A stretch of DNA of 64,000 nucleotides from Chiloscyllium plagiosum. Its lineage: Eukaryota. Below, piece after piece: positions 9,707-63,181 of the stretch (positions are counted from its first letter, which is position 1; every line of letters begins with the position of its first letter). The stretch is taken from positions 68,444,567 to 68,508,566 of the forward strand of contig NC_057719.1 of NCBI RefSeq assembly GCF_004010195.1. Reading direction: 5' to 3'. A program made the translations under genes and the position numbers. Below the pieces are notes generated by a model. It ran no database searches and was not told the DNA's origin. It was given only the letters and a program-made list of their open reading frames with translations.

Positions 9707-9938
9707 GAGAGAGAAAGTGAGGGCTGCAGATGCTGGAGATCAGAGCTGAAAATGTGTTGCTGGAAAAGCGCAGCAGGTCAGGCAGCATCCAAGGAACAGG
9801 AGAATCGGTGTTTCGGGCATAAGCCCTTCTTCAGGAAAGCCCTTCCTGAAGAAGGGCTTATGCCCGAAACGTCGATTCTCCTGTTCCTTGGATGCTGCCT
9901 GACCTGCTGCGCTTTTCCAGTAACACATTTTCAGCTCA
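9707..9938 (-). mobile_element. Penelope-like mini-element: inverted pseudo-LTR hairpin plus unpaired 3' tail (family A)
   Basis: 95-bp inverted arms 9743-9837 and 9843-9937; ~35-bp unpaired tail 9707-9742; 12-bp TSD TTTCTGTTAACT (9695-9706, 9939-9950); homologous to the 3' end of the GIY-YIG element at 31185-31877. Confidence 0.85.
9843..9877 (+). ncRNA. Minimal type I hammerhead ribozyme motif
   Basis: CTGAAGA-A-GGGC(TTAT)GCCC-GAAAC-GTC at 9846-9873: both core boxes, helix II and a palindromic ACGT helix III. Confidence 0.7.
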
Positions 9939-10724
9939 TTTCTGTTAACTAATCCATGATAACATATTTAAAAAGCTCTATGAGTCTTTATTTTGCATTA
10001 GTAATCTTCTGTGTGACACATTATTGATTGGCCTTTTGAAAATTGATATATCTATTGGCTCCCCATTATCTATATGATTTCTCTTTTGCAAAGCCAGCTT
10101 GACTTTGTCTGATCATGCTACAATCTTCTGGGTGCATTATTAACTCTTCTTTACAAATAAATTCCAGTAGTTTGCTGAAAATTGATATCAGTGGCTGTTC
10201 CATTGCGTGTTGTAGCACTCCTTCCTTCTTTGAGCAGCAGTGTTACATACGTTAACTTCCAGTTCACATGGAACCATTCTAGAATCTAAGGTATTTCGAA
10301 AATTAAATCAATGCATCCACTATCTCTAAATTTACATCTTTTAGAACCTTAGGGTATATTGGGCCCTGAGTACTTGTCAGCTTTAGTGCCTTAAGTTTCT
10401 CTAGTGTATTTTCTCTACTTACATTAAATGATTTAGCTATCTCACTTTAATAGCCCAATGTAATTCTTTAATTTCTGGTATGTAATTTGTATCTTATAGA
10501 GCCATACAGCACAGAAACAGACCCTTTGGAACGACCAATCCATGCAGAACACAATCCCAAACGAAGCTAGTCTCACCTGCCACCATCATTCCCCCCACCT
10601 GGGAGCTGGGGTGGGAGGATGAGTAAAGAAGGGAACTGAGTTTCTCTCTCCTGAACCAACAATTTTGAGGCTTCCTCTGTGACTGTAATAACTTGCAGCA
10701 CCTTGCCTGGTTCTTGTAGAAAAT

Positions 10725-12160
10725 TACCATCACAATGATACAGCACATTCGGCCCATCTCATTCATGTCAACCCAAAGACACCCAGATAGCCTTTCTAAT
10801 CCCATCTTCCTGCACATGCCCCATAGCCCTACAGCTTACAGCAATTTACAGTGCGGATCCAGGTATCTTTTAAAAAGAGTTTACTGCCTCTGCCTCCACC
10901 ACCACCCTCTGCTTTAAAAAAAGACTTCCTCACATTCCTTCTAATCCTTTTGCCACTTCACTTGAATCTATTTCTCCTGATTTTTGAACTGTCTGCCAAG
11001 GTTTCTCCCTACCCCTTACAATTTTGTATACCTCAATCATGTCACCCCTTAGCCTTCTCTGTCCCAAGGAAAATACCCCCAACCTCTCCAATCTTTCCTT
11101 GTAGCTATAGTTCTGCAGCCCTAACAACATTCTAGTAAATCTTCTCTGCACTCTCTCCAGAGAATTACATCCTTCCTATAATGTGGTGACCAGAATTGCA
11201 CACAATACCCCAGTTTTGGCCCCACCAGTGTCATGTACACTTTCATCATTATATCCCTACTTTGGTATTCTATACCTCTGCGAATGAAGGAGAGAATTCT
11301 ATATGTCTTCTTTAGAATCTCACCTACCTGTACTGCTACCTTTAGGAACCTGTTGCACACCAAGCTCTCGCACTTCATCTACACTCCTCAGTATATTCCC
11401 ATTTATTATGTATTCCCTTCTAATCGTTGGCTTCCCTAACTGCATTACATCATGCTTTTTCAGAGTTGAACTCTATCTGCCACTTTCCTGCTACTCCACC
11501 AACTCAATATCGTTTTGGAGCTTACAGCTGTCTATATAATTTGGGAGCTTAGACTACACTGCACTACTCTCTGCACTGCTCTCTGCATGGCCAATTTTTG
11601 TACCATCTGAAAATTTCCCAACTAGGCCTTCTGCATTCAAGCCTAAATCATTAATCTGTAACTGAGCCATGTGGAACATCACTTAAAACAGCTTTTCATT
11701 CTCAAGGGCAGCCATCAACCATGATCCTTTGTTTCCTATTACTAAGCCAACTTTAATCCAATTAAACTCATTACACTGTATCCTATAGACTTTTATGTTT
11801 TTGACCAGTCTGCCATGTGGAACCTTATCAAATGTCTTACTAAATTCCATGTAGACCGCATCCGCTACATTACCCTTATTGATCCTTGTTGTCAGCTCCT
11901 GAAAGAATTCAATCAAATTCAGGAGGCATGACCTTCCCTTAACAAAGCCATGCCAACAATCCCTGACTAGTCCATGCCTTCCGAAGTGACAGTTTATCTG
12001 AACTCTCAGGATTGATTTTAATAATTTGTCCACTACCAAAGTAAGACAAACTGGCTGATAATTGTTTGGCATTTCTTTTGTACCTTTTTTAAACAACGGA
12101 ATCACATTTGCATTGCTTCAGTCCTCTGGCACCTCACCTGTGTCTAATGAAGATTGGGTG
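10725..12160 (-). mobile_element. CR1 LINE ORF2 (RT to 3' end), decayed
   Basis: IPLFKKG..NYQPVCLT..HGFVKGRSCLLNLIEFF..FSKTFDKVPH; LGYCVQFWSPHYRKD; RLRGDMIEVYKI. Confidence 0.92.
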
Positions 12161-15879: not shown

Positions 15880-15908
15880 AAGCCTGAGCAAAGATTTTTG
15901 CACATTTC

Positions 15909-18900
15909 TGAAATATCTCCACAGAGGCTGGTATCCTGTCACCAAGTCACCGTTTGTTTATACATGGAGAGTCCTTGACACTAATCCAGCTCCCTCAGAC
16001 CCAGCTCTCAGAGTGAACAGGATGTCTGACACTCCTGTTCTCACATCTTCTGTGAGTGCAAAAGATGGGTGCAGTTTTTCTCTCATCATCCCCATGGTGA
16101 TGAGCGAAATCTATGCATGTCCAGCCACTTTGAATGGGTATCCACAATGACTAAGAGCATTGAGCCCATGAAAGGATATGCATAATTGACATGTAACTGA
16201 GTCCAATGGGGTTGACCTGGCCATTCCCACGAATGTGGGCGATCTGTGACGGTAATTTCTGTCCTTGTTGGCAATCTGGGCACTGCCCACCAATGCAGCT
16301 ATGTCTGCATTTAATCCTGGTTACCAGACATAACTACTTGCCAACATCTTCATTTTAGAAAACCCTGGATGACCCTGGAGGAGTTCCGCTAGTATCTAGC
16401 AGTGACCTTGTTCAGTACAATTGTTCTTGTTTATTATAATAATATGTCGACCTCTACTATGATCGAGTCTCTCCGGGTCCAAAGAAAGTTTTGATTCAGG
16501 TTGTGACAGCCCTTTGGTTTCCCCTATCATCACCAGCTGTTTCAGTTTTACAAGGACCAGACCTTCCTGCATCCAAAATCTGATATTGTCAGTTGTGACA
16601 GAAAGTCTGTCCAGAAAATTTAAAATCATCATGGAATTTTCCATGGCAGGACTACCAGTAGTGTATCAGCCAGTGGAAGTCAGCTCAATGGATGTGCATT
16701 TATTACTTTGCCTCCCAGACAGTGTTCCAACTTGTAATTATTCGCACTTAACATTAAAACCCAGCACTGAATTTGGCCTGAAGCTATGGGTGGTTCACTT
16801 TAAGTAGACCTAGCAAGGATTTGTGGTCCATTATTATTTCAAATTTACGTCCATAAAGGTGATAGTGGAACTTCCTGACTCCAAATATGACCGCCAACCC
16901 TTTCTTTTCTATCTGGATATCTTTATGCTCTGCAATAGCCAAAGTCTTGAATGCAAACGCTACTGGCGTTCCTCTCCATTGGGCCACGTATGAGCTAATG
17001 AGTTATGAACTTCCCTGAAGCCATTTGGGGAAGCATTGCATGTCAATATCAGACATCGTGTGAGTTCATAATGTGCCAACATCTTCGATGATGATCGCTC
17101 TTTCATCACTTCCTTGAAAGCTATGGCTTAGCTGAGCAACCATTTCTAAGGCTGACCCTTTTTTAGGAGTTGATACAAAGGTACCAAGATGGAGGCCAGG
17201 TTATGTATGATCTTTCCATTTTAATTCACCAGCCCAAGGGAAGACCTAAGCTCCAGTACAGATGTGGGAGCCAGAGCTCCTTTGCTTGTCCTCACTTTAT
17301 CTTCCAACTGGTGTAATCCAGTCTTGTTGACTCTATAGTTCAAGTAGGTCACTTGGGTTGCATGGAACACACATTTTTTCCCTTCTTAGGCAAAAGTCCA
17401 CCTTGCAGAAATGTCTAAGGATTATGTCCAAGTTATCTAAGTGCTCTTTATTGGTCCTCCCTGTTATTACCACATCATCCAGATAAATGTCAATCTGGGG
17501 AATACTTTGTAAAGTGTTCCCCATCATCTGCTGAAAACTTTCACAGGCTGACGAGACCCCAGATAGTAGTGTCATATATTGGTACAAACCCTTATAAGTA
17601 TAAATTGTAGCATACTTCTGGGAATCTTCATCTAACCACAGTTGCAAGTACACATAGCTCACGTCCAGCTTCATGAAGGTCAACACCTTTCCCAACTTTA
17701 CTATTATTCCTCTATGTGAAGGATTGGGTATTTATCCAGCTGCAAGAAGTGGTTTACTGTTTGTTTAAAATCCCCAAAAAGGTGAATCAACCGGATGAGA
17801 TTCACAATTAATATGACTGGTACTGCCCATTCCGCAAACTGGACTGATTTGATGATTCCTACACTTTCCAGCTTTCTGATTTCTGCCTCTACTTATGCCC
17901 ATAAGGCAAATAGCACTGGGTGGGCCTTGAGAATTATGGGAATACTTTTGGTCAACTTGCAAGGTGGCCTTGTCCATAGACCTTCCTGTAAAACTTCCAG
18001 GTATTTTACTTAGGGCTTCACTCAGGGAGCCAGTTTCTAACCGAGAAATGTTGAGCTAATGTCTGTGAATGTTTCTCAACCAATTTCGCTCCACCAAGCA
18101 TTGGCCCAAGCCTTTTAAATACAATTGTGGTAGTGTTACCAGCTGCTTCTCATAGCGATGGGAACTGAAGATGTACTCAATCTGTAAAGGCTCTCCTGTA
18201 TAGGTTCTCAGTCTCGATATGGAGCAAACTTAAGGGTTGGAGTCCAGAACAAATTTTGTTAAAGACTGGTTATGTGATCAGTGAAACAGCCGCGCTGATA
18301 TCGATCTCCATTAGAACCAGATAAACACTTAACCAGACCTTTATTTTGATTGGTACTGATTTGGATGTTCCTAAACAATTTAAGGGTTCCATACCAGATA
18401 TAGTGGGCTTTCCAGGGTGTGCACTCTCCAGGATTCTGGCCTTTGAGTTCTCTTGCTGAATTGAGGTCTCATGGTACTCTTGTCCTGTCTCTAGTCTGCA
18501 TGCCGGCAGCAACTATAGGCCGGGATCCTGAAAGCCGGGATCCTGAAGAAAATTTTAAACCTTCCACCGAGGCTTGGCTTTGTTTTGGGGTTTTACAGTG
18601 GGCTGACCTAGTGTCCCTCTGTTGAGGATATGTCCTGAGTGAGGCTATGCAATTGCCTTTACTCAACTGGTATTCCCCAAGCTCAGTCAGACTGGTGACG
18701 GTGTCTGCTTCCATTAGAGTACACTGCAACTCATATGCTCCACGTGACATTTTCCAGTGATAAAGCCAATTGTCGTGCCTGTTTGATGTCCAGTTGGGCT
18801 TCAGCTGGTAGGTGCTTTTGCATTTATACATCATTAATCACACATACCAAATCAGTGTCTTATTACGGGGTTAGCCCAAAGTCACATGCCTCTGCCAGTC

Positions 18901-19850
18901 ATCTTAACTTAGTCAAAAATCTCGATGTGGAGTTCCATGGTTCTCAAATTGCTGAGTAAAACCAGTAGCATCTCAGAATTAGAGGAGGCTTGGGGTTGTA
19001 ATATTCCAACTAAAGCCATCAACTCTTGGAAGGTTTTAGTATCTAGTGTTTCAGGGAGAGTAAGGCTCCTAATAACTGAAAAAGCTGTGGGTCCACAAGC
19101 TGCCAGGAGAATTATTCATTGCTTTTTATCTGACCCAATGTCATTTGCCTGGAAAATAATAATGCATTCTTTTCACATACTGGGCTCAGTCTTCGATGGC
19201 AGGATTGAATGCGTCAAGCTTCCCAATAATGGCATGATGCCAGAAGTTGTGAAACTTGTAAATCTTTTCTGAACCCTTTCAAGGATGATGCCAAGGTTAG
19301 GGGATTTGAGTTATATAGAGAAACAGAATAGGCTGAGGCTATTTTCCCTGGAGGCTGAGGGGTGAGCTAATAGAGGTTTATAAAATCATGAGGGGCATGA
19401 ATAGGGTAAATAGACAAGGTCTTTTTCCCAGGGTGGGGAAGTCCAAAACTAGAGGGCATAGGTTTAAGGTGAGAGGGGACCTAAGGTGCAACTTTTTCAC
19501 ACAGAGGCTGGTGTGTGTATGGAATGAGCTGCCAGAGGAAGTGATGGAGGCTGGTACAATTACAACACTTAAAAGGCATCTGGATGGGTACATGAATAGG
19601 AAAGTTTAAGAGGGATATGGGCCAAATACTGGCAAATGGGACTAGATTTATTTAGGATATCTGGTTGGCATGGACAAGTTGGACTAAAGGGTCTGTTTCC
19701 ATGCTGTATATCTTTATGGCTCTATAAATGCTTACCCTAACTCAAAGACAACTGTTGCAACCCATCACCAAGTCATCATTTACTTTCATGTGGAGTCTCT
19801 TTGACATTGATCCAGCTTCTTCAGAGTCAGCTCTCAGACTGAACAGGACG
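15909..19850 (-). mobile_element. Decayed Ty3/Gypsy LTR retrotransposon (gag-PR-RT-RNaseH-INT) with partial LTRs
   Basis: gag start 19235; PR MEIDISAAVSLI (~18270-18320); RT KLD..YLQL..YLDD (17333-17695); RNase H QIEKKGLAVIFGVRKFHYHLYGRKF; INT WEWP..LVIVDTHSKW; related LTR remnants 15909-16039 and 19761-19848. Confidence 0.93.
19246..19725 (+). mobile_element. CR1 3' fragment inserted in the Gypsy leader
   Basis: SKTRGHRFKVRG..FFTQR..WNELPEEV; CR1 3' UTR; internal 29-bp inversion at 19255-19283. Confidence 0.9.
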
Positions 19851-20945
19851 AGTGTGAGGGATATGGGCCAAGTGCTGGCAAGTGGGACTAGATTACGTTA
19901 GGATATCAGGTCAGCATGGACGAGTTGGACCGAAGGGTCTGTTTCCCTGCTGTACATTTCTATGACTATGACTGTACATGGGGAAAAATATGAAGTTATA
20001 TACTTTGGATGAAGAAAAGGGACAAATATTATTTTATCGGGACTGTAGAAAGCTGCAGCACAGAGGGATTTGGAGCTTCCTTATACATGAATCTCAAAAA
20101 TGCTGGCATAAAAGTTCAATGGGGAGCAGGGATACCAAATGGAATGTTGGCCATTATTTCAAAGGGAAAGGAGTATAAAAGTAGGAAGTCTTGTTAAAAC
20201 TATACAAGATGCTAATTAAAAGGCAATTGGAATATTGTCAACTGTTTTATTCCCTTAATCTTAACAAAGATATACTAGCATTGGAGTCAAAGCAGAGAAG
20301 GTTCATTTGGTTGAGTTTGGGTATGGAGGGGTTTTCTAATGAGAAGAAGTTGAGCCGGTCAGGTCTGTCCTCAGAAGAATGAATAGCAATATTATTGAAA
20401 AACATAAGATTCTCAGGGGGCTTTGAGGAGAAAGTGAGGTCTGCAGATGCTGGAGATCAGAGCTGGAAATGTGTTGCTGGAAAAGCGCAGCAGGTCAGGC
20501 AGCATCCAGGGAACAGGAGAATCGATGTTTCGGGCATAAGCCATTCCTGAAGAAGGGCTTATGCCCAAAACGTCGATTCTCCTGTTCCCTGGATGCTGCC
20601 TGACCTGCTGCGCTTTTCCAGCAACACATTTCCAGCTCTCAGGGGGCTTGACAGGGTCAATGCTGAGTGGTTGTATCCTATTCTGGGACAGTCTAGGACC
20701 AAAGGGCAAAACTGAAGATTAAGGGGTCACATCTTTAGGCAGAAGAGACCTTTCTTCTCATAGCAGGTAGTGAATCTGTGGAATCTTTTGCCATAGAAGA
20801 TTGTTGAGGCTTAGTCATTAAGTACATTAAAGGCTGACATGAACAGAGTTTTAATCAGAAAGGGACTTGGGAATTATTGGGAAAAGTGGAGTTGAGGATT
20901 ATCAGATCAGCTGTGGTCTCATTGCATAGTGGAGCTGACTCATAT
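19851..20945 (+). mobile_element. CR1 3' end (19851-19975) and an older CR1 ORF2 3' fragment
   Basis: (ATGACT)n tail; LKLYKMLIKRQLEYC..ALESKQRRF; interrupted by a PLE hairpin. Confidence 0.8.
20424..20636 (-). mobile_element. Penelope-like mini-element, inverted pseudo-LTR hairpin (family A)
   Basis: 13-bp TSD TCTCAGGGGGCTT (20411-20423, 20637-20649); same layout as 9707-9938; hammerhead motif 20547-20574 with GAAA changed to AAAA. Confidence 0.85.
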
Positions 20946-20962
20946 ACTTAGGCACCTGCAAA

Positions 20963-21093
20963 NNNNNNNNNNNNNNNNNNNNNNNNNNNNNNNNNNNNNN
21001 NNNNNNNNNNNNNNNNNNNNNNNNNNNNNNNNNNNNNNNNNNNNNNNNNNNNNNNNNNNNNNNNNNNNNNNNNNNNNNNNNNNNNNNNNNNNN
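20963..21093. other. Assembly gap (N run)
   Basis: 131 consecutive N. Confidence 1.
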
Positions 21094-22039: not shown

Positions 22040-23500
22040 TAGTAATTGTAGCAATTGTAGCAAGGTCAGCCAGGTGGACAACATAGAATATGAGTTCCCT
22101 GATTGGGACTATTAATCTGGTCCAATCTGGGAGCCCTGGCTGATAGATATAAACAGGAGTGTCACCACGTGAGTGTTTTTCCTCATGTGGAAATATTGAA
22201 TAAAGTTCTTGTAAAAGAACAAAAAGATATAAATAAATGGAGATTCAAGAGGACTCATCAATCTAGGGACTGGCTTTGAGCTTGCTGGCCACAGCCAGTG
22301 TACCGTACATAACTAAATAATAGGTGACCTGGTGACAGTATACTGGCTTCTGTGCAGAAAAAGGAAGAGCAGGAGTGTCACACATCCCATTTACTCTAAA
22401 AGCTGACTCTGAGGGAGCTGGATTATTGTCAAGGACTCTTCACATGAAAGTAAAGGATGACTTGCTGATGGGATACCAGCCTCTGTGGAGTTATTTCAGT
22501 AGCGACGAGAGAAAAGCAAGCTCCTGAAGAAATTCACTTGCAACAGTTGTCTTTGAGTTAGAGTAAGCATTTATACAGTCATAGAGATATACAGCACGGA
22601 AACAAACCCTTCGGTCCAACTTATCAATGCCAACTAGATATCCTAAGTAAATCTAGTCCCATTTGCCAGCATTCGGCCTATATCCCTCTAAACCCTTCCC
22701 ATTCATACACACATCCAGATGCCTTTTAAATATTATAAATTTTATCGCCTCCACTACTTCCTCTAGCAGCTCATTCCAAGCACATAGCGCCCTCTGCATG
22801 TATAAAAATGGACTCTAGGTTCCTTTAAACCTTTCCCTTCTCACCTTAAACCTATGCCCTCTAACTTTGGACTTCCCCACCCTGGGAAAAAGACCTTGTC
22901 TATTTACACTATTCATGCCCCTCATGATTTTATAAACCTCTATTAGGTCACCCCTTAGCCTCTGGCACTCCAGGGAAAATAGCCTCAGCCTATTCAGCTT
23001 CTCTCTATAGCTCAAACCCTCTAACCCTGACATCATCCTTGAAAGGGTTCAGAAAAGATTTACAAGTTTCACAACTTCTGGCATCATGCCACTATTTGGA
23101 AGCTTGCCTCATTCAATCCTGCCATCGAAGACTGAGCCCAGTATGTGAAAATAATGCATTATTATTTTCCAGGCAAATGACATTGAGTCAGATGAAAAGC
23201 AATGAGTAATTCTCCTGACAGCTTGTGGACCCACAGCTTTTTCAGTTATTAGGAGCCTTATTCTCTCTGAGGCACCAGATACTAAAACCTATCAAGAGTT
23301 GATGGCTTTACTTGGAATATTACAACCCCAAGCCTCCTCTAGTTCTGAGATGTTACTGGTCTTACTCAGCAATTTGAGAACCATGGAACTCCACATCAAG
23401 ATTTTTGACTAAGTTAAGATGACTGGCAGAGACATGTGACTTTGGGCTAACCCCTTAATAAGACACTGAGACACTGCTTTGGTTTATGGGGGCCTATGGT
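22040..23500 (+). mobile_element. Gypsy 5' LTR, PBS, leader and gag N-terminus (inverted copy of the 15909-19850 element)
   Basis: LTR ends TATTTCA at 22498; PBS-like TAGCGACGAG (22500-22509; TGGCGACGAG would match tRNA-Ser GCU); gag ATG at 23086; CR1 insert at 22573-23075. Confidence 0.88.
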
Positions 23501-30272: not shown

Positions 30273-30497
30273 TAAAAACTGAAAGAACTGCAGATGCTGG
30301 AAATCAGAAACAAAAGTAGAAATTGCTGGGAAAGTTCAGCAAGTCTGGCAGCACCAGTGGAGAGAAATCAGAGTTAACGTTTCGAGTTGAGTGACCTTTC
30401 TTTTGAGGGTCACTTGACCCGAAACGTTAACTCTGATTTCTCTCCACAGATGCTGCCAGACATGCTGAGCTTTTCCAGCAATTTCTACTTCTGTTTC
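30273..30497 (-). mobile_element. Penelope-like mini-element, inverted hairpin (family B)
   Basis: Inverted arms ~30306-30400 and ~30405-30498; tail with CTGCAGATGCTGG; TSD TTCTCCAAATCCAAA (30258-30272, 30495-30509); partial hammerhead GGGTC(ACTT)GACCC-GAAAC-GTT. Confidence 0.85.
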
Positions 30498-31039
30498 TCC
30501 AAATCCAAAACTCATGACGTGTAAAGAAATGAAGTAGCTACATGGACTCTGGTTACTTGTTTGGCATTGTCGCTTCCTAACAAAAGTAGAATCAGAAACA
30601 AAGTATGTTGCAGACCGGATGCCTGGAAGTCAGATATCAATAAATTTTTGATGCTTCTATAAAGCCTCCTATGATTAAATTTTGAAGAAAAATAAGCAAT
30701 TACCAATGTGAATATATCCTTAACATACACAAGCTTTGCAATTCATTCTCTTTGTCTTCTACAAGTCCAACAGCATTCACTCAGCCTCTGCCATGAAGGA
30801 TTAGGCTCTTCAGGATATCATGTCCTCCACCACTTCTGGGGAATATGTCTAAGGAATGAGGGAAGTAGCTCCAGGAGTTTTTGGAGCCTATAGGACCTCG
30901 GACTGTGATCATGAATTGTGGAACATAGCTGACATGTTGCAGCTCGCCAGACATCACCTCTGCTACACAGAAATTGCTAGATTAACTTCTAATAATCAAC
31001 TATATGGTCAAGATTGTTTGTGGTCAGGATTACAACCAT

Positions 31040-31925
31040 ATAATCATTGTTGTTAAAAATCCATCTGATTCGACAAATATCCTTTAGAGTAGGAAATCCG
31101 CCAACTTTTTGTCCTTCATGTGACCCCAGGCCACATATAAATGTAGCTGACTCTTAACTTGGTTAAGGGTTGGACAATAAATGCAGAGCACTTTAGGGAA
31201 CATCTCTGGGACACCCTCACCAATCAACCCCACCACCCCGTGGCGGAACATTTCAACTCCCCTTCCCACTCTGTCAAAGACATGCAGGTCCTGGACCTCC
31301 TCCATCACCATTCCCTCATCATCTGACACCTTGGAGGAAGAACGCCTCATCTTCCGCCTCAGACCCCGTGGCGGAACATTTCAACTCCCCTTCCCACTCT
31401 GTCAAAGACATGCAGGTCCTGGACCTCCTCCATCACCATTCCCTCATCATCTGACACCTGGAGGAAGAACGCCTCATCTTCCGCCTCAGAACACTTCAAC
31501 CCCAGGGCATCAATGTGGACTTCACCAGTTTCCTCATTTCCCCTCTCCCCACATTACCCCAGTTCCAACCTGCCAGCTCAGCACCATCCTCATGACCTGT
31601 CCTACCTGCCAATCTTCCTTCCCACTTAGCCGTTCTACCCTCCCTCTGACCTATCACCTTCATCCCCACCTCTATCCACCTATTGCAGTCTTAGCTACCT
31701 TCTCCCCAGCCCCACCCCACCCCCACCCCGGAGGCTCCCTGTCTCATTCCTGATGAAGGGTTTTTGCCCAAAGCGTCGATTTTCCTGCTTCTCGGATGTT
31801 GCCTGATCAGCTGTGCTTTTCCAGCACCACTCTAATTTTAACTCTGATCTCCAGCATCTGCAGTCGTCACTTTCGCCATAAATACTGACCTAGCCAGTGA
31901 CATTCAAGTCCCATGAACACATTTT
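31040..31925 (+). mobile_element. SINE family B split by a PLE insertion
   Basis: SINE body 31040-31184; tail resumes at 31878 (ATAAATACTGACCTAGCCAGTGAC). Confidence 0.7.
31185..31877 (+). mobile_element. Penelope-like retroelement 3' fragment: GIY-YIG endonuclease C-terminus, 3' UTR, pseudo-LTR and tail
   Basis: FREHLWD..PVAEHFNSPSHSVKDMQVL..LEEERLIFRL..TLQPQGINVDFTSF; decayed hammerhead 31750-31777; approximate TSD ATAAATRC. Confidence 0.88.
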
Positions 31926-35335: not shown

Positions 35336-35347
35336 TCTGGGCTAGGT

Positions 35348-35481
35348 TAGAGACAAAATATCTGCAGATGCTGGAATCTAAGGTAGACAAGCAGGAGGCT
35401 GGAAGAACACAGCAAATGTTGACTTCTCCACCTCCTGATGCTGCATGGCTTGAGGTGTTCTTCCAGCCTCCTGCTTGTCTC
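35348..35481 (-). mobile_element. Penelope-like mini-element, centrally truncated hairpin (family C)
   Basis: 14-bp TSD TCTCTGGGCTAGGT (35334-35347, 35482-35495); inverted arms AGACAAGCAGGAGGCTGGAAGAACAC; tail with CTGCAGATGCTGG. Confidence 0.8.
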
Positions 35482-35489
35482 TCTCTGGG

Positions 35490-35885
35490 CTAGGTGGCAG
35501 TGTAGAATAATTGAGAGACTGGTATTATCACTAAGGTAAAAACAATGACTGCAGATGCTGGAAACAGGTGGCAGTGTAGAATAATTGAGAGACTGGTATT
35601 ATCACTAGACTATTATTGTAGAGACCCAAGTAACGATCTCTGGGTTTGAGTCCCACATGGTAGAGGTTGGGCTCAATTTTTGAAAAATCAGGAATTTAGA
35701 GTCTAACAATGACCATTGTCAATTGTCAGGAAAACCCATCTGGTTCACTAATGTCCTTAGGGAAAGAAATCTGCCATCCTTACCTCGATGTGATCACGAA
35801 CCACAGCAATGTGGGCAATAAATGATGCCAATGAATGCTGGCCTAGACAGTGATGCCCACATCCCATGAATGAATTAAGAATAAA
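35490..35885 (+). mobile_element. tRNA-derived SINE (family B)
   Basis: CCCATCTGGTTCACTAATGTCCTTAGGGAAAG core and family B tail. Confidence 0.8.
35534..35565 (-). mobile_element. Tail-only PLE insertion with a 42-bp direct duplication
   Basis: AGGTAAAAACAATGACTGCAGATGCTGGAAAC between identical 42-mers 35492-35533 and 35566-35607. Confidence 0.75.
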
Positions 35886-36473
35886 ATCAGGTCATCAATG
35901 ATATTGTTTAATGACAGAATAGGCTTGAGGGGCCTTGTAGCCTACTTCTGTTTCTTATTCATATTTTTAAATGTTTGAATGTTTAACAGACAATTAAAGC
36001 ATTTTAAATACTAAACACAGAAAAATGCTTACTCATGTTCCCAAATATATAATATAATTACATAAATCAAATGTTCATCATTTGCCAGTAATCGTAGTCA
36101 AAACTATTCTTCTGTCTTTTAGTTATTCTTCCCAAAAATCAAAGCCAGCCTTACGAACATGCCTCCATCAAGTTTATGGCCCTTTGATAGCTGTGCAAAC
36201 TTTAACCAGTGCATTTCAGATATCACTTAGCTGACGCCATTATAAACGGAACAGGATGTGTTGAAGTATTATCAACTGAGATGGGGTTTGCTGAGCTCAC
36301 TGCCCTGGGCCTCTTGTGTCCGCAGTCTGCCCTCAGTCCCAGTACAACAGCTCAGTCAATAATTTATTAATATGCACTGTACAATTGAACAGGAAGGTTC
36401 GGCTCATCACATTACAAAAATAAAATCAATTTAGGTAAAATAATTTGCTTAAAGGTGTTCATAATAGGCCCAG

Positions 36474-36576
36474 ATCATGATTTGGAGATGCCAGTGTTGG
36501 ACTAGGGTGTACAAAGTTAAAAATCACACAACGCCAGGTTATAGTCCAACAGGTTTAATTGGAAGCATGAGCTGTC
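36474..36576 (-). mobile_element. Short 3' terminus of another Penelope-like family
   Basis: 9-bp TSD TAGGCCCAG (36465-36473, 36577-36585); GGAGATGCC tail resembling the other PLE tails; family assignment from recall. Confidence 0.55.
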
Positions 36577-48721: not shown

Positions 48722-49303
48722 TTTCATTTGACTTATTGTAGTCTCATGTAGCTAAGTACAGTAAAAAAGCTTTGTTTTGTGAGCAGTGCAGACAGATCAT
48801 AGCAAACAAGGGCATACAGATCAGAGAGTGCTTAAAGTGAGGCATACAAGTTACACTGCACAGGAGGTGTGGAAAGCAAGATCAACATTAGCAAGATCAA
48901 CATTATTTGAAGATAGAGAGGTCCATTCAGCAGTCCAATAACAGCGGGGAAGAAGCGGTTCTTGAACTTGCTGGTTTTCCAGCTTCTGCATCTTCTGCCT
49001 GATGGAAGGGGTTGTAGGAGAGCAGTAATGGGTTGGGAGGGATCTTTAATAATTGGCCACCTTTCTGCTGCAAGAAGAAGTGTAAATGGAGTCCATGGAT
49101 GGGAGGTTGGCTTCCGTGACAGTCTGTGCTATGCACATATCCTTCTGTAGTTTCTTACAGTCCTGCGCAGAGCAGTTGCTGTACCAAGCCAGTGTGTACC
49201 CAGATAGAATGCTTTCTGTGGTGCATCTGTAAAAGTTGGTGAGGCTCCTTATGGACATGCTGAATTTCCGAAGCCACCTGAGGAAGAAAGGTGTTATTGT
49301 GCC
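48722..49303 (-). mobile_element. Rex1/Babar LINE 3' fragment nested in an old + strand CR1 (48510-49490)
   Basis: FFLRWLRKFSMS..LTNFYRCTTESILSGYTLAWYSNCSAQDCKKLQK. Confidence 0.88.
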
Positions 49304-49504
49304 TTGAAATGAGAAAAATGTTTTATAGCTTTGTGTAGCTAGGGTCTGAAATTCACCCCTGGATGTGTGGTGAAGGCCGGTCCAATTGCAGCATTCATGA
49401 GGGTATTGGATGATTATATAAATAGAAAGATTTGCAGGGTTATGGGAAAAGGCAGGAGATTGGCACTGAGTTAAAATGCTCAGTGAGCAAGGGCATAATA
49501 AGTG

Positions 49505-49842
49505 CAGCATGGTGACCCAGTGGTCAGCACTGCTGCCTCACAGCACCAATGAACCCAGGTTCAATTCCTGTCTTGGGTGACTGGCTCTGTGGTGTTTGCA
49601 CATTCTCCCTGTCTGTGTGGATTTCCTCCCACAGTCCAAGGTTGTGTAAGGTAGTTGGATTGACCATGCTAAATTACCCATAATGTTCAGGCATGTGTTG
49701 GTTTGGTGCATTAGCCATGGGGAGTGCAGGGTTACAGGGATAGAATAGGGGATGGTTTCGGTAGGATGCTGTTTTGGAGGGTTGGTATGGACTTACTGGT
49801 CTGAATGGCCTGTTTCCACACCATGGAGATTCTATTCTATTC
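49505..49842 (+). mobile_element. HE1-type V-SINE
   Basis: tRNA head with GGTTCAATTCC, V-domain, (ATTCT)n tail. Confidence 0.85.
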
Positions 49843-52800
49843 TGGTTGGTACAGGACCAAATGGCCTCCTTCTGCACTATAATGATTCCGCGAAGGATTT
49901 TTAGAAAAATTACTTCACGAAGTCAGTATTCCATGAATATCAGTTTATATCACTTGTTTATTTTTCACTTTGTTAATGTTGTTCCTAAACCTACACACCG
50001 AATTCCTGTTTCCCAGGAGAGCAATCAATTCCTGAAGATGCATATTGATGGCATCAGTCAACTAGATGCTGATACAATAGCATCGCAGATCTTGTAATGA
50101 TTCAGGGGCAAATTATAACTTTTGTCATTGGATAAGAAGTGAAGAAATTGTTGGCTGCTTTACACATTGCATGGGAAATAAAATTGGATGAAATGTAAAA
50201 CAAGCAGTTAGTTTGTTCCAACCCATTATTTACGCAATGATAAAGTTAAAATTACATCCCCCTACTCACTCCAACTTTTAAAAAGTCTATCCACAGTCAT
50301 GGTATAACAATCATTCGTGTACAAGTAACAGGCCAATTTGTTCCTTTGCACATTCAATTAAATGCCTTGTGCTTAATACAGATGAATGTGGGCATGCTGG
50401 GGAAATCTCTGCAAGGAAACAAGAGGAAAAATATCATTGCGCATCCAAACTTTGTAAAGCAGCCCTCCCACATCAATAAGACAGTTGCTTCAGTTGTTTA
50501 AATAATAGAAGGAAGTTCTTCATGAAGACAATGGTAAGAAACTGCTGCTGGGTTATGAGTTCAGCTCATTTGTTTGAATATTTATGGTATTCAATGACTC
50601 CCTGCTGGATATCCTCCATAACATAACCTGCTGGGAAAGGAAGGTTATCACTTTCTTCAACTGAAAGCTTCTGTTTGCAATCTGAACCCCATTAAGCAAT
50701 AAAAAAAACAGCAAGGTGCCGAACCTCTTGCTTAGAAATAGTTAGGGTTTTTGCCTCAGTCTATTAGGTTGACTGTTTGATCAATGTCATTTTAATAACA
50801 TAATGGACTGCTAACTGGATTGTCTTTGAAAATTACTTGACCAGATTAAAATGACCACAGCAACTAGCCAGTCTCAGTAAATCATAATACGCTTACAGTT
50901 ACACCACATCACTCAATGCCTACATCCAAACATTGACAATAAACTATTTGAACATTAAAAATGAGCTAGTAAAGCTGTGGAAGCAGTTACTGCATGAAAA
51001 ACTATTGGACATATACTCCAGACCCACTTTTAAAAAAGAGAATTAAGTCTTACTTGTTTGACTAGATGTGCTCAGTCCTCAATCAGAATTTATTCATTCC
51101 TCATTCAATGTATTCAGCTTGTCCAAGGCTGATTTGATCAGAAGTTGTACTTTACACTGAAGGTGTGTAATGTAAACAGATTGCAGATATAAATAATGTT
51201 TCTAATTAATTAGGAATTGTAGTTTAAACAAACACATCCATTATTTCATTTTGAACCTTTTTGCATCAAAGTTGCTCCTATGAGGAGTCACTAACAATAG
51301 AAAAAATGTATTCAATATATGTAATTGTTGACAGCCATGTCACTCAGTTATGCAACACTAATAATCAATTTAAAGGTGTAGCCTTATAACGGTTTTAATA
51401 CACAATTTTGCCCTGAAATTCTAAAATGTACAATATGTGCACTCTTCCATGTTCACTGTTATAATAAATGGTCTGGAATGAGTTACTCGAAAATTATACA
51501 ATCAAAGCACTCTGTCAATGTCACTCTTTTGGCTTATAAATAATACAAACCCTTATTATTGCACAGTCATCCTGTAACACACTCTAGCCTCACTCTAAAC
51601 ATGTCTGTTACTTTATTATAATAGATACAATTTTATCTTTACATATGAAAAATTCAGTTGTCTGATTTGGTTGTAAGCAGGGACTATTGAACCTCTGCTC
51701 CTCTATGTTTTGAGATTAATGCATGAAACAAATAGTATAACATAATATAGCTATTAAATGAATAATGCAGTGATGTTAAATTGTTAAGAGTGTGTAATAA
51801 AACAGTGATATATTAAGAGGCTCCATTATTGCAAAAGCATGTTATAGTTATTCTCATTGACTGCTAAATATCAAAATATGTGATTTCGGGTAAATATTTA
51901 GAAATTCAACATTTATATTGTAGTACAAATGCAAAAATTAGTACTATTTGATCATTCATTTATTATGTAGCTAAATTCATGTTTTCTGATTCTTAAATTG
52001 CTTGGATCTGATTCTTCGACAAATCCACTTGATATATATTAGATCAACTTGTACTTATCAGGAGTACATAATAGTAACTGTTATTATAACATGCGAAGAC
52101 TTAAAACACAAGGACTTAACCTTTAAGAAGTCACTTTGCAGAAGGCAATGAGAAAATATATTGAACATGGCAAGAATGAGAATATCATTTTTACAACATT
52201 TACATTATACCCATCTCACTGCTTTGCTATCACAGACTATCAATTGAGTTGAGTTGTTAATTTTAAATGTTTGTATCCTCCATCACACTTTTCCACTGAA
52301 CCATGACTAAACATGAAAACGTTTTAGTACAGTGCAGCACCCTCATCTGATCAGTCAAGTGTACTGCAAAAGGTGAATTGATACTCCGTGTGTTTCGAAC
52401 TGTTCTTTTGTTAGATACTGTAATATAAGAAACTTTGAATTAAAGCACTTGAATTCATAACACATTTTTGGATTTACAATCAGCACCACAGGTTGCTGTT
52501 TTATATGAACTTCCTAAAATATCAGTTAATCTGCAGAATTATTAGAATTTTATCCAGAATCATTAATAGGTTTTCAAAACTTGTAAACTAAATTTGTTAT
52601 TTTTTCGTAACTGCTGGTGATGGAAGTTAGATAATGAGCATCTAGTATTATTAATTCTCTAAAGCTATTTCCCAAAATCTCTCTTTGAAGTTGGGTACAC
52701 TTCATAGACGTATTTAACATCAGGTCCTTGTTGACCTGCAATTACTTTCCACTAAATTGGGTTGAGTTGTTAATTTTAAATATATTTGTGTCCTCCATCA

Positions 52801-58089: not shown

Positions 58090-59165
58090 GCTACTCTCAT
58101 GACTTGCTCATTCTGACTATAAACACCAAGAAAACTTTGATCATAGGACAAGGTGCTGCATCTCTGCCCCTAATCACCCTTAGTAACAGCCTGCTGGAAG
58201 TGGTTAGCAAATCCTCCCACCTCGGGTGCACAGTGACAGTCAATCTGCCTCTTGCTGCAAAACTTCATACTCATAACTATTTTCATCTACCTTGTGAAAT
58301 GCACATGCAATAACATCAGGCTGACTCACGGGACCAAGCTGTTGGTTCCTGTAGGCTGTGTTCTTAACACCTCTGCTGTATGGCAGTGAAACAGGAACAA
58401 CTTACAGTTACCAGGAAAAGAAATACAACAAAATAAAAAACTGTTGACGCTGGAAATCAGAAACGAAAACAGAAATTGCTGGAAAGACTCAGCAGGCCTG
58501 GAGGAGGGAAAGCAGAGCTAAGGTTTTGGGTCCAATGACACTTCTTCAGAACTAGTAATAGCTAGAGTAGCTCCTAGCTGCTGAAGGGTCACTGGACCCA
58601 AAGTGTTGACTCTGCTTTCTCTCCACAGAACACAACAATTTCCTGCTTCACCATCTGCTGTGGACATATTCTAGCAGGACAAGCTCATGAATGCAGTGGT
58701 CCTTTCAAAGACAGCTTCCAAGTGTTAACATTCATCAAATGAAGATGGCTTCAGTCAATCAGGCACATCTGTAGAGTGGAAACAGTTGCACACTCAAGGA
58801 CTTTCTGGAGAGTGAAATAGCAGGAGCAAAATGATCAGTGAGGAGCCCAATGATTCACTTCAAGGATGCTTACAATTGTGGCATGAAGCCTCAGACCTTG
58901 ACTACCACATTTTGCTGACAAAATGGGGAAACAGCCCCTGTGGGCTACCATGACATCCAATAGCTACAGCTGCTTGAAAATAGCTACCCAATGCTGAAAA
59001 CAGCCCACAACCCCACAGTAGCTTCATGTATGGCATTTGTTGCAGAACCTGCTCTTAAGATTTGCCTTTAATCACCAAAGATGCATCTGTTGTAGACCCT
59101 TCCTGCTCTTCCCAGCTAAATGGATTGATGCTGTGCATCTATCATCTCTCATTAATGGAAGGATG
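58090..59165 (+). mobile_element. RTE-clade LINE 3' fragment
   Basis: LTINTKKTLIIGQ..LPLITL..LEVVSKSSHLGCTV; LLYGSET-like at ~58375. Confidence 0.75.
58431..58628 (-). mobile_element. Older PLE mini-element, partial hairpin (family B)
   Basis: Homologous to 30273-30497; minus strand reads AGTT-CTGAAGA-A-stem-(G)AAAC; second decayed hammerhead on + at ~58578-58610. Confidence 0.7.
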
Positions 59166-59282
59166 CAGCTATTAGAACCTCTAGATTGAATGACTGGTGC
59201 CTGGGCACCGCCAAACACAAAGTGTAACTTAGCATATCCTGACTCCATCACCTACAAACCACCCTTCAGTTGAAAAACAGCT

Positions 59283-59755
59283 TTGGCTCAATGGTTACAG
59301 TCATATCTCTGAATCAGGAAGGTGTAGATTCAAGTTGCATTCCAGAGATTAAGAAAATAATCTATGATTAACACTTAGTTGCTGCACTGTCAGAGATGTT
59401 AAACTGGGGTCAAAAGTGTGGTGCTGGAAAAGCACAGCAGGTCAGGCAGCATTCAAGGAGCAGGAAAGGAGACATTTCAGGCATAAGCCTTTCTCATTCC
59501 TGATGAGGGGCTTATCCCTGAAACATTGTCTCTCTTGCTCCTCAGATGCTGCCTGACCTGCTGTGCTTTTCCAGCATGGCTCCTTTTGATTCTGATCTCC
59601 AGCATCTGCAGTCCTCACTTTCTCCAAGATGTTGAACTGGGGCCTTATCTACTGTCTCAAGTGATGTAAAGAAAATTTTTTTGGCAATACTGTGACAAAG
59701 AGGAAAGGCACTCTCTCTGGTGTTCTGCCCCAAATTTATTTCTCAAACAACATCA
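59283..59755 (+). mobile_element. Deu-domain SINE (SacSINE1-like) split by a PLE hairpin
   Basis: Head TGGCTCAATGG..GATTCAAG; Deu-like GCTGCACTGTCAGAG..GTTAAACTGGGGCC..CTGGTGTTCTG..AAATTTATTTCTCAA. Confidence 0.7.
59410..59626 (+). mobile_element. Penelope-like mini-element, inverted hairpin (family A, older)
   Basis: 16-bp TSD AGATGTTRAACTGGGG (59394-59409, 59627-59642); CTGATGA at 59500; 3' tail present. Confidence 0.85.
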
Positions 59756-60266: not shown

Positions 60267-61149
60267 CTGAAGACGGCAGTGAATGGACCTGATATTGTGC
60301 ACCAGTTGGAGGATGCTCAGGTGTGTGAGGCGCGGGGGGGGGGATCCTGTCTGCTCATATCTAGGGTTCTGAACCTCCCTCGGGAGCTTGTGTCCCACAA
60401 CCTGCAATGTGTTCCTCCCTATCATCTACCTTACAACAATGTCCCAGAACCTATAATCACCATCAGGACAGGTTCAGCAGAGGTGGCAGCCCACTGATAT
60501 ACAGTCTGGAGAGAATTATCCTGGTCATCCTCAACATTGATTTCAGATATCATGAAATTTCAAGACATCAGGTCAAACATTAACAAAGAAACCTTGTCAC
60601 ATGCAGTCAGTTTATCCCCCCACCTTGCTTTGGGGAAAAAAGCAAGAAATACTTGCAGAAGAGCATGCAGAAAGATCAAGGCATATAACTTCTGCAGACC
60701 AAACCACATAAAAGAAATAGGAAATCATGCTCTAACTACAAGATGCTGAATTGCTTCAGATGCAAAATAAACCGAGAATGTTTGCTACTGGAGAGGTATC
60801 AGCCAAAGATTCTGGTGAATGACTTACTCTGTACAATTCTTCAGGTCTAAAGTGATAAATGGTTTGTGACTTCCCATAGATGCAGCGGATATTACTACTC
60901 GACAAGTCAGTCCAAAGAATTGAACCTTACTTAACAGATGATTTTAGTTTTCTTTAAATTTAAATTTAACGTGCTGATCTTTCACTGAAATATAAACACA
61001 CATGGCTGCAGATTTGATTTTAACAATAAAATGAAAGTTTATAACATTAAAAAAACAGAACAAGCTATCCAAATATGACACCGTTTGAAAGATTTCAAAG
61101 TAGATGGCAAAACAAAATACAAATCTAATCCTCAACACTGTCACTTCAC

Positions 61150-61250
61150 GGAGAAAGTAAGGACTGCAGATGCTAGAGAATCAAAATGTCGACTCTCCTG
61201 GTTCTCGGATGCTGCCTGACTTGCTGTGATTTTCCAATGCCACCCTCTTC
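61150..61250. mobile_element. PLE mini-element: tail plus one inverted arm
   Basis: ~18-20-bp TSD TCAACACTGTCAYTTCAYGG (61132-61151, 61249-61268). Confidence 0.78.
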
Positions 61251-61989
61251 AACACTGTCATTTCATGGTTAGTCAAAATTCAAAGAAATCTTCTTTCCCT
61301 GTCAATTTGTCGGCTTGACTTAACTGCTTCTTCTCAGTTCCTGTCCTGAGTTGGGTAGTTTGCACAGGATATTATAATTGCAATAGCTTATTCAATAGAA
61401 CATTTAAACTCAAACGCACGTGTTCAAAACTACCTCCTTTTTTCTTTCATGTATTGCTCACATGACTAAGAGCTTAAACTTTCTCAGTCTTTTAATAATA
61501 TTCAGAGTTCTAACCAAGTATTCATTCAAAAACAGCATTCTTCCACTGAGGTAACTCATTCCTTAACTGCTCTAAACACATTTTTTTTCCAGGAAGACTG
61601 CACCTGCATCTGAACCCTGTCAGGTCTCCTTCAAACTGAACCAAAAGCTTTTGAACTAAATTTTAATCAAAATCTTGCTCATCCTAGATTCTGCTAAAGC
61701 TAATGACTTATTTTTTTCTCTCCTCTGTTGTAAAACCTGAATAATACAAACAAAAATCCTTAACACTCCAGGAAGTTTGCAATCAACTGCTATTTAGCAC
61801 ATACTTATTTTAAAATTATAGTTCCGGCAAGTCTGAGCTTAATTAATTTAAAACCACTTCGCAAAAATACCAATACCCATAAGTCACTACATTGAAGTCC
61901 AAACACTAGAAAAATTAATAAAGATAAGGCACATACCTTTTCGTCACACTGGTTAGAACGGAAACCGCAAAAGGAGAGCATCCAGTGAA

Positions 61990-62552
61990 CATGAAGTGAC
62001 ACTTATATTTCATATAACATCATGAGCCTCAGAGACCCTGTGTGATGTGTCTCAAGATGGTAACTCTCAGCATAGCACTCAAAAGTAAGATTAAAGCTAT
62101 GTGATGGACCAGTTGTCAGGGCAAGAAGACAAAGCTGACAGCCCAACACAATGGGAAGAATAAACATCTGGAGTTCCAAATATTAGCCATTAAGTAAGCA
62201 TCATTTATCTTAGCTAAAGCAAGTCTAAAATTTGGACTAGAAATCCTAAATATGCTAGAAGAGACTTGGCAATGATTTGTAAACCTGAATCGATCATAAA
62301 ATATTACAAATTTGTTTACTCAAGTGTTGCATGTCTTCCTGGTGAATACTATCTTGAAATTGATGAGAGTGTGAGATCAATTCAGCATCTGCCAAGGAGA
62401 GTCCAAGTTGTCCTCAAGGCCAGACTGAAAGACAAGATAGAAGTAGCTGGAAAAGAAGAGAGTAATCAAGAAAGTAACAAGTCCTACAGATTGGATTAGG
62501 CAGTTTGGTGGCAGTGGAAAAAATGGAAAACTGAGAGTATGCACAGATCCAT
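61990..62552 (+). mobile_element. Gypsy pol fragment (RT N-terminus)
   Basis: CLPGEYYLEIDESVRSIQHLPRRV..LKDKIE; VIKKVTSPTDWI; GKLRVCTDP. Confidence 0.75.
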
Positions 62553-63048
62553 AGGTCCATCTAGACTTGATGAAGATAAGATGAGTGCTGTTCTGGCCAA
62601 GTATAAGAAATGAGATTAAGGATCACATGGCCAGCGCAGTTTATGTAGCAAAATACAGGGTAACAACTTCAACAAAAATGCTAAAAATTATAATAGATAC
62701 AAAATATGTTATTATTTCCTGCAAAATTTAATCATTTTCTAAAAGTAAAGGTATTACTGAAAACTGGACCATTCTTTGACTTTGTATATTCAGACTATGT
62801 TTGCTGATTACTTTGATGTCGGGACCTGAGGTCCTTTGTGTCTCACTGAATACAAATCATGTAGAAGGGAGCTTGTATGACACCAACAAAAGTCTTATGT
62901 TAAGAACAATGTATAAGTAGCAAAATCAGGAAATCTGAATTAACAAAACCATGAGATACGTTGGTTTTAAAAAAGGGTCAGCTCGAATAACAACATGAAT
63001 AAACAATGTCCATGTCCCTGTCACTTCAGATCCTGTTGGCCCACAATG

Positions 63049-63181
63049 ATCATTCCTGATGAAGGGCTCCTGTCCGAAACGTCGATTTACCTGCTTCTCG
63101 GATACTGCCTGACCTGCTGTGCTTTTCCAGCACCACTTTAATCTTGACTCTAATCTCCAGCATCTGCAGTACCCACTTCTG
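63049..63181 (+). mobile_element. Solo PLE pseudo-LTR with tail
   Basis: 8-bp TSD CCACAATG (63041-63048, 63182-63189); homologous to 31745-31877. Confidence 0.85.
63052..63087 (+). ncRNA. Minimal type I hammerhead ribozyme motif
   Basis: CTGATGA-A-GGGC(TCCT)GTCC-GAAAC-GTC at 63056-63083; helix II kept with one G-U pair. Confidence 0.7.

Follow-up and report, generated by a model that had tools for sequence, protein, structure and literature searches.

Among the Penelope-like elements (PLEs) described so far, those with a C-terminal GIY-YIG endonuclease (EN+ PLEs, Neptune/Nematis type), whose shark homologs combine a reverse transcriptase (RT) with a linker, come closest to the sequences reported here (PMC8557442). 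Their copies are heavily truncated at the 5′ end, carry an inverted pseudo-long terminal repeat (pLTR) and a tail of 30-40 nt on one end, and are framed by target-site duplications (TSDs) of variable length (PMC8557442), a tail-less inverted pLTR with an optional tail of 30-40 nt being the published PLE anatomy (PMC3846280, PMC8557442). Furthermore, metazoan PLEs contain minimal type I hammerheads with a CUGANGA box, an extra base before helix II, a G10.1-C11.1 pair, palindromic positions 15.2-16.2 and no helix III stem; most of these motifs are single copies, "probably related to truncated PLEs", and oppositely oriented pairs separated by ~100-700 bp have already been published (PMC4209133). 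For PAc (Poseidon of Anolis carolinensis), in vitro work has shown nicking and extension on both target strands and two RT start sites, one on either side of the tail; reverse transcription relies mainly on uncleaved RNA, and insertion persists when the hammerhead is mutated (PMC11167929). A closely similar anatomy is met in a stretch of 64,000 nucleotides from the shark Chiloscyllium plagiosum (NCBI RefSeq assembly GCF_004010195.1, contig NC_057719.1, positions 68,444,567 to 68,508,566 of the forward strand; hereafter the window), which holds eleven insertions that are probably dead, one-off truncated products of autonomous Neptune/Nematis-type PLEs, dual-primed and stopped at the hammerhead.

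A sequence-only reading of the window had proposed ten short inserts and a GIY-YIG-coding element of 693 nt (31185-31877), and all eleven were found in place. Its claim that nearly all have their own TSD of 8-42 bp holds as well, since direct repeats with 0-2 mismatches flank 11/11 inserts, with lengths in window order of 12, 13, 15, 8, 14, 42, 9, 10, 16, ~17 and 8 bp, so that the variable-length TSD, a hallmark of PLEs, is present throughout. The shortest of them, at 31185 (8 bp, 1 mismatch), 63049 (8 bp) and 58431 (10 bp, 1 mismatch), would be weak if taken alone. Together the inserts amount to 2,276 bp, or 3.6% of the window, with about one insert per 6 kb and no strand bias among tail arms (8/11, P 0.23). 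The tail motif CTGCAGATGCTGG has 14 matches at up to 2 mismatches in the window, with 1.7 expected, and nine of the 14 lie in inserts (eight exact, one with a single mismatch); the tail is thus shared by most inserts, as had been proposed, but it is decayed in 58431 and missing from 36474. Pairwise distances place 9707, 20424, 59410, 61150, 63049 and 31185 in lineage A, with two tail subtypes, 30273 and 58431 in lineage B, and 35348 in lineage C, while the tail of 35534 is distinct from all others and 36474 aligns with no other insert. With a divergence of 35-50% between groups, tail sequence and divergence give five or six lineages, in agreement with the minimum of three suggested before. A profile built from the arms and run on the window with nhmmer recovered the known copies, 35534 weakly (E 0.03) and 36474 not at all; no further convincing copy was detected in the window (best extra match E 0.3), and two weak matches, 50603-50639 and 5164-5186, were rejected on inspection. 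Ten of the eleven inserts are 3′ ends of PLEs. The PLE identity of 36474, which we presume to carry a GAAA/helix III remnant at its 5′ end, is tentative; because it does not align, this insert does not enter the counts of cores and breakpoints, but it is part of the length test.

The most telling feature, which had gone unnoticed before, is that seven of the eleven inserts (9707, 20424, 30273, 35348, 58431, 59410 and 61150) are head-to-head inversions. In each of the seven, exactly one arm reaches the tail end and the inverted arm stops short, with a tail offset between the arms of ~33-41 nt in the five measurable cases, a spread that depends on the assignment of 1-4 ambiguous bases. Bare tails also occur, as 35534 (32 nt) and as the tail arm of 61150 (~37 nt). 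These lengths are in keeping with the 30-40 nt of tail lying between the two RT start sites of the anole PLE (PMC11167929) and with an inverted pLTR that lacks the tail (PMC3846280). All seven junctions differ, including four within lineage A; the centre of 9707 is a short templated patch re-copied from left-arm sequence, and the remaining junctions show overlaps of 1-3 nt as judged by eye. In 20424, 35348 and 61150 (3/7) the tail-less arm holds 13-70 nt that are absent from the tail arm, and therefore was not copied from it. In 61150 an inverted tail-less arm (+21 to +85, numbered as below) is fused to a bare tail (~+91 to +128), which is the simple twin-priming pattern. Both 9707 and 20424 have two non-CpG variants common to their own two arms, which faintly suggests a separate origin of each hairpin. 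Fold-back targets start with TCT within 5 nt in 4/7 cases, resembling the inner-start-site RNA (post hoc P 4e-4). No insert forms tandem arrays in the window, and the seven different junctions, TSDs of 8-42 bp and asymmetric arms do not match a uniform unit like a miniature inverted-repeat transposable element (MITE).

Equally informative are the positions at which the arms begin, expressed here relative to C3 = 0, with the cleavage site at +28 and junctions refined by eye. Tail-bearing arms start at ~-14, -8, -7, -3, +3 to +6, +9, +59, +91 and +97, and 31185 far upstream; tail-less arms start at ~-10, -4, -3, +3 to +6, +5, +21 and +21. Thirteen of the 16 alignable short arms hence start between -14 and +21, over the hammerhead, a zone through which 31185 reads. 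In 20424, for example, the tail arm begins within helix II and the tail-less arm, with a G12 to A change, 4 nt before CUGANGA; both arms of 30273 begin just 5′ of helix II, without most of CUGANGA; both arms of 58431 begin 10-14 nt before CUGANGA; and in 35348, whose tail arm measures ~68 nt, the tail-less arm begins at A13 of the GAAA box. The cleavage site is the starting point of none of the 16, which means that the RNA templates had not been cut, in line with the in vitro findings. The start cluster is a zone ~35 nt wide over the hammerhead, and not a fixed unit end. Tail-arm lengths are 32, 37, 68, 103, 119, 127, 131, 133, 133, 135 and 565 nt, with 6/11 at 119-135 nt. Six lengths in the fixed interval 115-145 nt have a P of at most 5e-4 under the best exponential, and a length scan over intervals that begin at 80 nt or above gives a P of at most 0.0016. 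A smooth truncation-length distribution had been named beforehand as evidence against a distinct class of mini-elements; with n=11, the lengths are probably not smooth.

Several lines of comparison bear on the hammerhead itself. Between the majority sequences of lineages A and B, 10/11 core bases are identical compared with 81/132 positions elsewhere (one-sided P 0.04), so that the core is better conserved between lineages than the other positions. On an alignment of 10 sequences, 83% of cells are compatible with helix pairing vs 12-51% in slid controls, and two-sided pair changes occur in helix II (C-G to U-A) and in helix I; one helix I pair is broken in 6/7 sequences. These patterns, from few and related sequences, lend modest support to the view that the source elements carried a genuine minimal type I hammerhead. 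Rfam returned no hammerhead for the whole window, only 12 matches at E up to 5, all below the gathering score and headed by microRNA (miRNA) models, and nothing for 63030-63130 alone, negatives that are uninformative because minimal hammerheads lack helix III.

In the copies the motif is mostly lost. All 11 core bases are kept in 3/15 aligned arms (9846+, 59500+ and 63056+), a set that omits 35534, 36474 and the bare tail arm of 61150, and the ACGU palindromic helix III is retained in two of the three (9846+ and 63056+), the tail arm of 59410 having 11/11 core bases (59500-59527) without it. A CUGANGA box with at most one mismatch is found in 6/11 inserts; 35348 and 61150 hold AAA-NGUH alone with no helix II, 35534 is a tail without a hammerhead, and the decayed hammerhead of 31185 (31750-31777) keeps 9/11 core bases. 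At the decayed hammerhead CpG (15.2/16.2) of 9707, 20424, 59410, 61150 and 35348, CA is seen in three tail arms and TG in three tail-less arms, both being small numbers. The simple stub 63049, which begins 6-7 nt before CUGAUGA, is the sole copy whose full core (63056-63083) is not faced by an antisense arm; a tandem partner is missing. For the six overlapping fold-backs, + strand hairpins with energies between -62 and -197 kcal/mol are predicted, and two of the three full-core arms sit in hairpins of -197 and -132 kcal/mol. Helix II has a pairing probability of 0.00 in whole 9707 and 20424 vs 0.77 in 63049, which alone is predicted to have a full core free to fold. A canonical hammerhead dimer was not reproduced by RNAcofold of two copies. 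The description of the inserts as hammerhead-bearing was therefore an overstatement: the motif appears real in the source elements, but a full core is left in only 3/15 arms and 36474 cannot be aligned. Decay within copies gave conflicting pictures, with 4/82 core vs 115/919 non-core changes in lineage A (P 0.05, confounded by sub-lineages) and 7/36 vs 42/378 in lineage B (P 0.17, in the opposite direction and including junction bases), and was not usable as evidence of selection on copies. Judging from their sequences, the copies are best read as neither working ribozymes nor a self-propagating family.

The PLE origin of the inserts is virtually certain, and the link runs through 31185. This element consists, in order, of a broken C-terminal part of a GIY-YIG endonuclease (~31186-31568), a pyrimidine-rich 3′ untranslated region (UTR), the hammerhead, the pLTR end and the tail; the endonuclease part does not include the GIY-YIG motif. 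Pfam had no relevant match for three pieces of its open reading frame (ORF), and a word-based homolog search with the window peptide gave one candidate and no match. HMMER, queried with a 63-residue piece in which the stop was read as X, returned 100 relatives at E up to 0.001; among ten that were domain-scanned, six had a GIY-YIG match and P0080 alone combined a PLE-type RT and GIY-YIG in one ORF. With the relative P0004 as query, 15 longer proteins were obtained, including gene models of Rhincodon typus (P0102) and Stegostoma tigrinum (P0103). The window peptide is 67% identical to the whale shark model P0102, which holds RT and GIY-YIG in one model, and 63% identical to the zebra shark model P0103; overall, the 31185 fragment aligns at 44-67% identity to proteins carrying GIY-YIG and RVT_1. 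A CX4CxxC linker is visible in P0102, the nearest named homolog, in a region outside the part present in the window, and a CxxC lies between GIY and YIG in both P0102 and P0080. A CX2-5CxxC linker marks the Neptune and Nematis clades (PMC8557442), and the homologs thus suggest a Neptune/Nematis-type assignment, drawn from them because the window contains no PLE RT, the RT being known from P0080 and P0102. P0103 extends past the endonuclease and ends in SLMKGLRPKRQ, which resembles the FLMKGFCPKRR encoded by the 31185 frame over the hammerhead; the match is weak by BLAST (7/12, E 0.013) and its position after the 3′ UTR is consistent. The proposed PLE origin is thus supported by homologs of 31185 with RT and GIY-YIG. 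In the window itself, no full-length autonomous partner and no tandem copy (pLTR-ORF-pLTR) was seen, as expected of dead stubs, and nhmmer found no second copy of the upstream 560 nt of 31185, only the self-match.

Related to this element, some additional observations were made. It contains an internal tandem duplication (31235-31362 and 31363-31490) of 128 nt, 99% identical with one indel, while the element itself is 16-24% from its lineage A relatives; the duplication is either a recent event or an assembly overlap. In lineage A, an ATG ~45 nt past the core (e.g., 31796-31877) opens a short frame (MLPD...ISSICS) that in 31185 and 9707 continues through the tail; the PLE ORF may begin here, because pLTR and tail cover the ORF start in other PLEs. 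Finally, the models P0009, P0012, P0016 and P0022 are chimeric, joining a PLE endonuclease fragment to 7tm_1, DUF4518, another RT or an RNase H-like domain; PLE stubs therefore contaminate gene predictions.

As a mechanism leading to such structures, we propose that a PLE protein would nick both target strands in a staggered manner, giving the TSDs observed here, and that both 3′ ends would then prime cDNA synthesis on uncleaved PLE RNA, one at the outer site (the tail end) and the other at an inner site ~35 nt upstream, in the way described for the anole PLE. Use of two start sites is suggested by the anatomy of the arms. Synthesis would usually end after ~70-135 nt at the hammerhead, which may act as a stall or boundary, and not as a cutter. 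The cDNA 3′ ends would then be joined by microhomology or short templated patches into a one-tailed head-to-head hairpin; the junctions themselves are seen, and the repair route is deduced from them. Where only the outer site was used, simple stubs such as 63049, 31185 and 35534 would result. The parts of this scheme are not equally secure. That the inserts were made anew at each insertion is likely, dual priming is somewhat less so though still favoured, and the chance that the hammerhead causes the stop falls slightly short of even; the joint action of dual priming and a hammerhead stop in vivo is presumed.

A number of observations weigh against this scheme. Palindromes are prone to later centre deletions, and in old copies such deletions could mimic independent arms and variable junctions. 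At the CpG site G16.2, the two tail arms of 9707 and 20424 agree with each other and differ from the two tail-less arms, a pattern expected from a shared palindromic parent. With an AT content of 57%, against 61% in the window, the targets do not show the AT-richness of those of the anole PLE, and the tail-less arm of 58431 stops ~45 nt early. An unrestricted length scan gives P 0.11 (mean 60 nt) or 0.04 (mean 80 nt), without significance when the mean length is short, and an RNA with its 5′ end ~15 nt before the hammerhead would yield a similar length cluster. Lineages B and C, the 35534 tail and 36474 are not linked to any ORF, and the evidence base as a whole is one 64-kb window with 11 events, seven of them fold-backs.

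It is also conceivable, though doubtful, that the PLE hammerhead serves as a module for RNA pairing and RT stopping, in which two RNAs, paired via the ACGU helix III in a dimeric ribonucleoprotein, would be copied from opposite nicks, with both polymerases halting at the dimer interface before the cDNAs are joined. If true, this would offer a general account of inverted pLTRs. It would also mean that shark genomes are seeded with very many hairpins of 100-230 bp, a possible source of double-stranded or small interfering RNA silencing the parent element.

Among the explanations that compete with dual-primed truncation, descent from a short non-autonomous unit survives best, even if we regard it as unlikely. 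According to it, a transcript of ~130-145 nt that starts shortly before the hammerhead, or else a parent copy of palindromic structure, would be mobilised in trans by the PLE protein in the fashion of short interspersed elements (SINEs) or MITEs. The length cluster at 119-135 nt and the single copy in eleven that extends upstream of -14 agree with such a unit, but the 5′ ends are scattered across 35 nt and do not accumulate at a single upstream limit. Cargo can be mobilised in trans by pLTR sequence on its own (PMC3846280), in vitro the RNA needs no more than its ORF-start region (PMC11167929), and one CpG site puts the tail arms together; nevertheless, no two of the seven junctions agree, even within lineage A, and the recurrence of the same pattern in lineages 35-50% apart suggests a mechanism rather than one parent copy. 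The sequence-only reading had left the choice between such mobilised units and extreme 5′ truncations, and truncation fits better because the junctions are unique, no arm starts at the cleavage site, tandems are missing and most cores are broken or trapped in hairpins.

Self-priming, in which a single cDNA folds back and copies itself and later centre deletions give the asymmetry, is likewise rather unlikely. It was proposed for rotifer PLEs, with an antisense template, from palindromes at inverted junctions (PMC3846280). The tail-less arm is approximately a subset of the tail arm in 9707, 30273, 58431 and 59410, with 9707 nearly symmetric, but the tail-less arms of 20424 (young, 2/78), 35348 and 61150 hold sequence that the tail arm lacks, and this needs later deletion. 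Furthermore, self-priming does not account for the end of the second arm at the inner RT start site, and the helix II loop is not the centre of any junction.

It is highly improbable that the inserts are monomers of non-LTR retrozymes, spread by hammerhead self-cleavage, circularisation and reverse transcription, although pLTR-related retrozymes occur as dispersed monomers in vertebrates including one chondrichthyan (bioRxiv 10.64898/2026.07.22.740005). The window has no tandem array of units, the cleavage site coincides with no arm start, and the arrangement runs from core through downstream sequence to tail instead of from one cleavage site to the next; the motif is the minimal PLE type and not a canonical type I with a 6-bp helix I, and helix II is abolished within the hairpins. 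Finally, we give almost no credence to palindromes produced by assembly, for which a 131-N gap in the window and the possible assembly overlap of the 128-nt, 99%-identical duplication in 31185 might be cited, as TSDs frame the arms, which diverge by 3-28% and in every case are unequal by the length of one tail.

In terms of age, the mismatch between arms is 4/96 in 9707 and 2/78 in 20424, and 11/90 in 30273, 18/84 in 59410, 7/33 in 35348 and 16/57 in 58431. Of the six measurable fold-backs two are young and four are old, and the view that the inserts are fairly young applies only to the former. Insertion into other repeats, given previously as CR1, RTE and SINE copies, is documented by an empty site spanned by other window repeats for 5/11 inserts (9707, 20424, 31185, 35348 and 35534), with 20424 splitting the reading frame of a repeated long interspersed element (LINE) 3′ end, a CR1-like ORF remnant. 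For 58431 the context is a continuous RTE-like reading frame only, with no Pfam match in six frames to its left, and the remaining five inserts gave no support. The CR1, RTE, Rex1 and SINE labels are our presumptions, that of SINE being based additionally on repetition within the window, where ARAGORN found no tRNA. No nested insertion into an insert was seen, which agrees with the view that none is itself interrupted, except that 31185 holds its internal duplication; such small targets say little on age.

Table 1. Coordinates of the inserts and of their arms and cores in the window. Inserts are labelled by position; labels 58431 and 61150 refer to the inserts bounded by 58432..58628 and 61149..61248.
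Position	Strand	Feature	TSD (left / right)
9707..9938	-	Fold-back PLE stub, lineage A, young	9695-9706 / 9939-9950
9707-9837	-	Tail-bearing arm of 9707 (arm-pair match 97%)	
9843-9937	+	Tail-less arm of 9707	
9846..9873	+	Intact core of a minimal type I hammerhead, inside 9707, with palindromic helix III	
20424..20636	-	Fold-back stub, lineage A, young	20411-20423 / 20637-20649
30273..30494	-	Fold-back stub, lineage B	30258-30272 / 30495-30509
31185..31877	+	5′-truncated PLE	31177-31184 / 31878-31885
35348..35481	-	Asymmetric fold-back, lineage C	35334-35347 / 35482-35495
35534..35565	-	Tail-only insertion, 32 nt, no hammerhead	35492-35533 / 35566-35607 (42 bp)
36474..36576	-	103-nt insert	36465-36473 / 36577-36585 (9 bp)
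58432..58628	-	Old fold-back, lineage B; tail-less arm stops early	~58422-58431 / 58629-58638
59410..59626	+	Old fold-back, lineage A	59394-59409 / 59627-59642
59410-59493		Inverted tail-less arm of 59410	
59492-59626		Tail arm of 59410	
61149..61248	-	Inversion without overlap	~61132-61148 / 61249-61265
63049..63181	+	Simple 133-nt 3′ stub	63041-63048 / 63182-63189

Besides the inserts, the window contains several other structures. Between 35334 and 35607, two PLE inserts of different lineages lie ~50 bp apart in the head of one SINE-like repeat; the TSDs of 35348 and 35534 overlap by 4 nt, and the 42-bp TSD of the bare tail is unusually long. A large inverted LINE-derived pair (18852-19854 and 22379-23469; 502 nt at 94%, blocks at 81-95%) is spaced by ~2.5-3.6 kb, and a gap of 131 N extends over 20963-21093, which shows that the assembly is scaffolded. 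An 80-nt segment unrelated to the PLE stubs occurs twice (61356-61440 and 63611-63695) with 96% identity, 2.3 kb apart. Pfam revealed RVT_1 fragments at 17333-17731 (-) (E 3e-11) and 11683-12117 (-) (E 9e-6), which from their motifs we take to be an LTR-retrotransposon-like and a CR1-like RT, respectively. A LINE 3′ ORF remnant at 48832-49537 (-), presumably Rex1-like, shows 58% identity over 76 aa to part of P0094.

Inverted pLTRs, tails, solo minimal hammerheads and pLTR-derived retrozymes are already published, and the class is not new. No published account of shark fold-back stubs or of arm stops at a hammerhead was found in a literature search that was thin on subscription papers and did not cover Repbase and Dfam. 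How PLEs make inverted pLTRs, and what role weak hammerheads play, are questions left open in the accessible parts of PMC8557442, PMC3846280 and PMC11167929. Short TSD-framed copies record both priming and both stop points within one insertion, and a genome-wide tally could test dual priming against self-priming, as well as an RT stop at the ribozyme. The stubs are also an annotation hazard, since they resemble MITEs or miRNA hairpins; the top Rfam matches were miRNA models.

Compared with EN+ PLEs, 10/11 copies described here are shorter than 240 nt and have no ORF, and the inverted pLTR makes up the whole insertion instead of capping a long copy. The inserts also resemble the twin-priming inversions of L1, which have a 5′ inversion within the TSD and microhomology at the junction, and 61150 fits this pattern directly. 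The two arms of an L1 inversion, however, derive from neighbouring stretches of a single RNA that do not overlap, whereas in 6/7 fold-backs of the window one segment has been copied two times, from a second start point that hardly varies. Like the non-LTR retrozymes, the inserts are short, non-coding, hammerhead-related, pLTR-derived and dispersible (PMC7229834; bioRxiv 10.64898/2026.07.22.740005), but retrozymes are described as head-to-tail tandems with complete hammerheads and circular RNA, while the inserts, whose cores are mostly broken, occur singly or head-to-head. With respect to the minimal hammerheads of PMC4209133, helix II differs in having 4-5 bp and helix I in having only 2-4 bp; in its accessible text, that paper does not name sharks or analyse fold-back anatomy and stop positions. 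PAc belongs to a different clade, and the available text on it is without inverted insertions or hammerhead stops; its targets are AT-rich with no homology between RNA and target, in contrast to the targets here, which are not AT-rich and show matches of 1-4 nt (PMC11167929). The anatomy of the inserts is nonetheless compatible with what is described for PAc, namely two RT start sites bracketing the tail, the nicking and extension of both strands, an uncleaved template and a predicted dimer, and the PAc hammerhead lies ~110-150 nt from the start sites, comparable to the ~128 nt from C3 to the tail end in the shark copies (PMC11167929).

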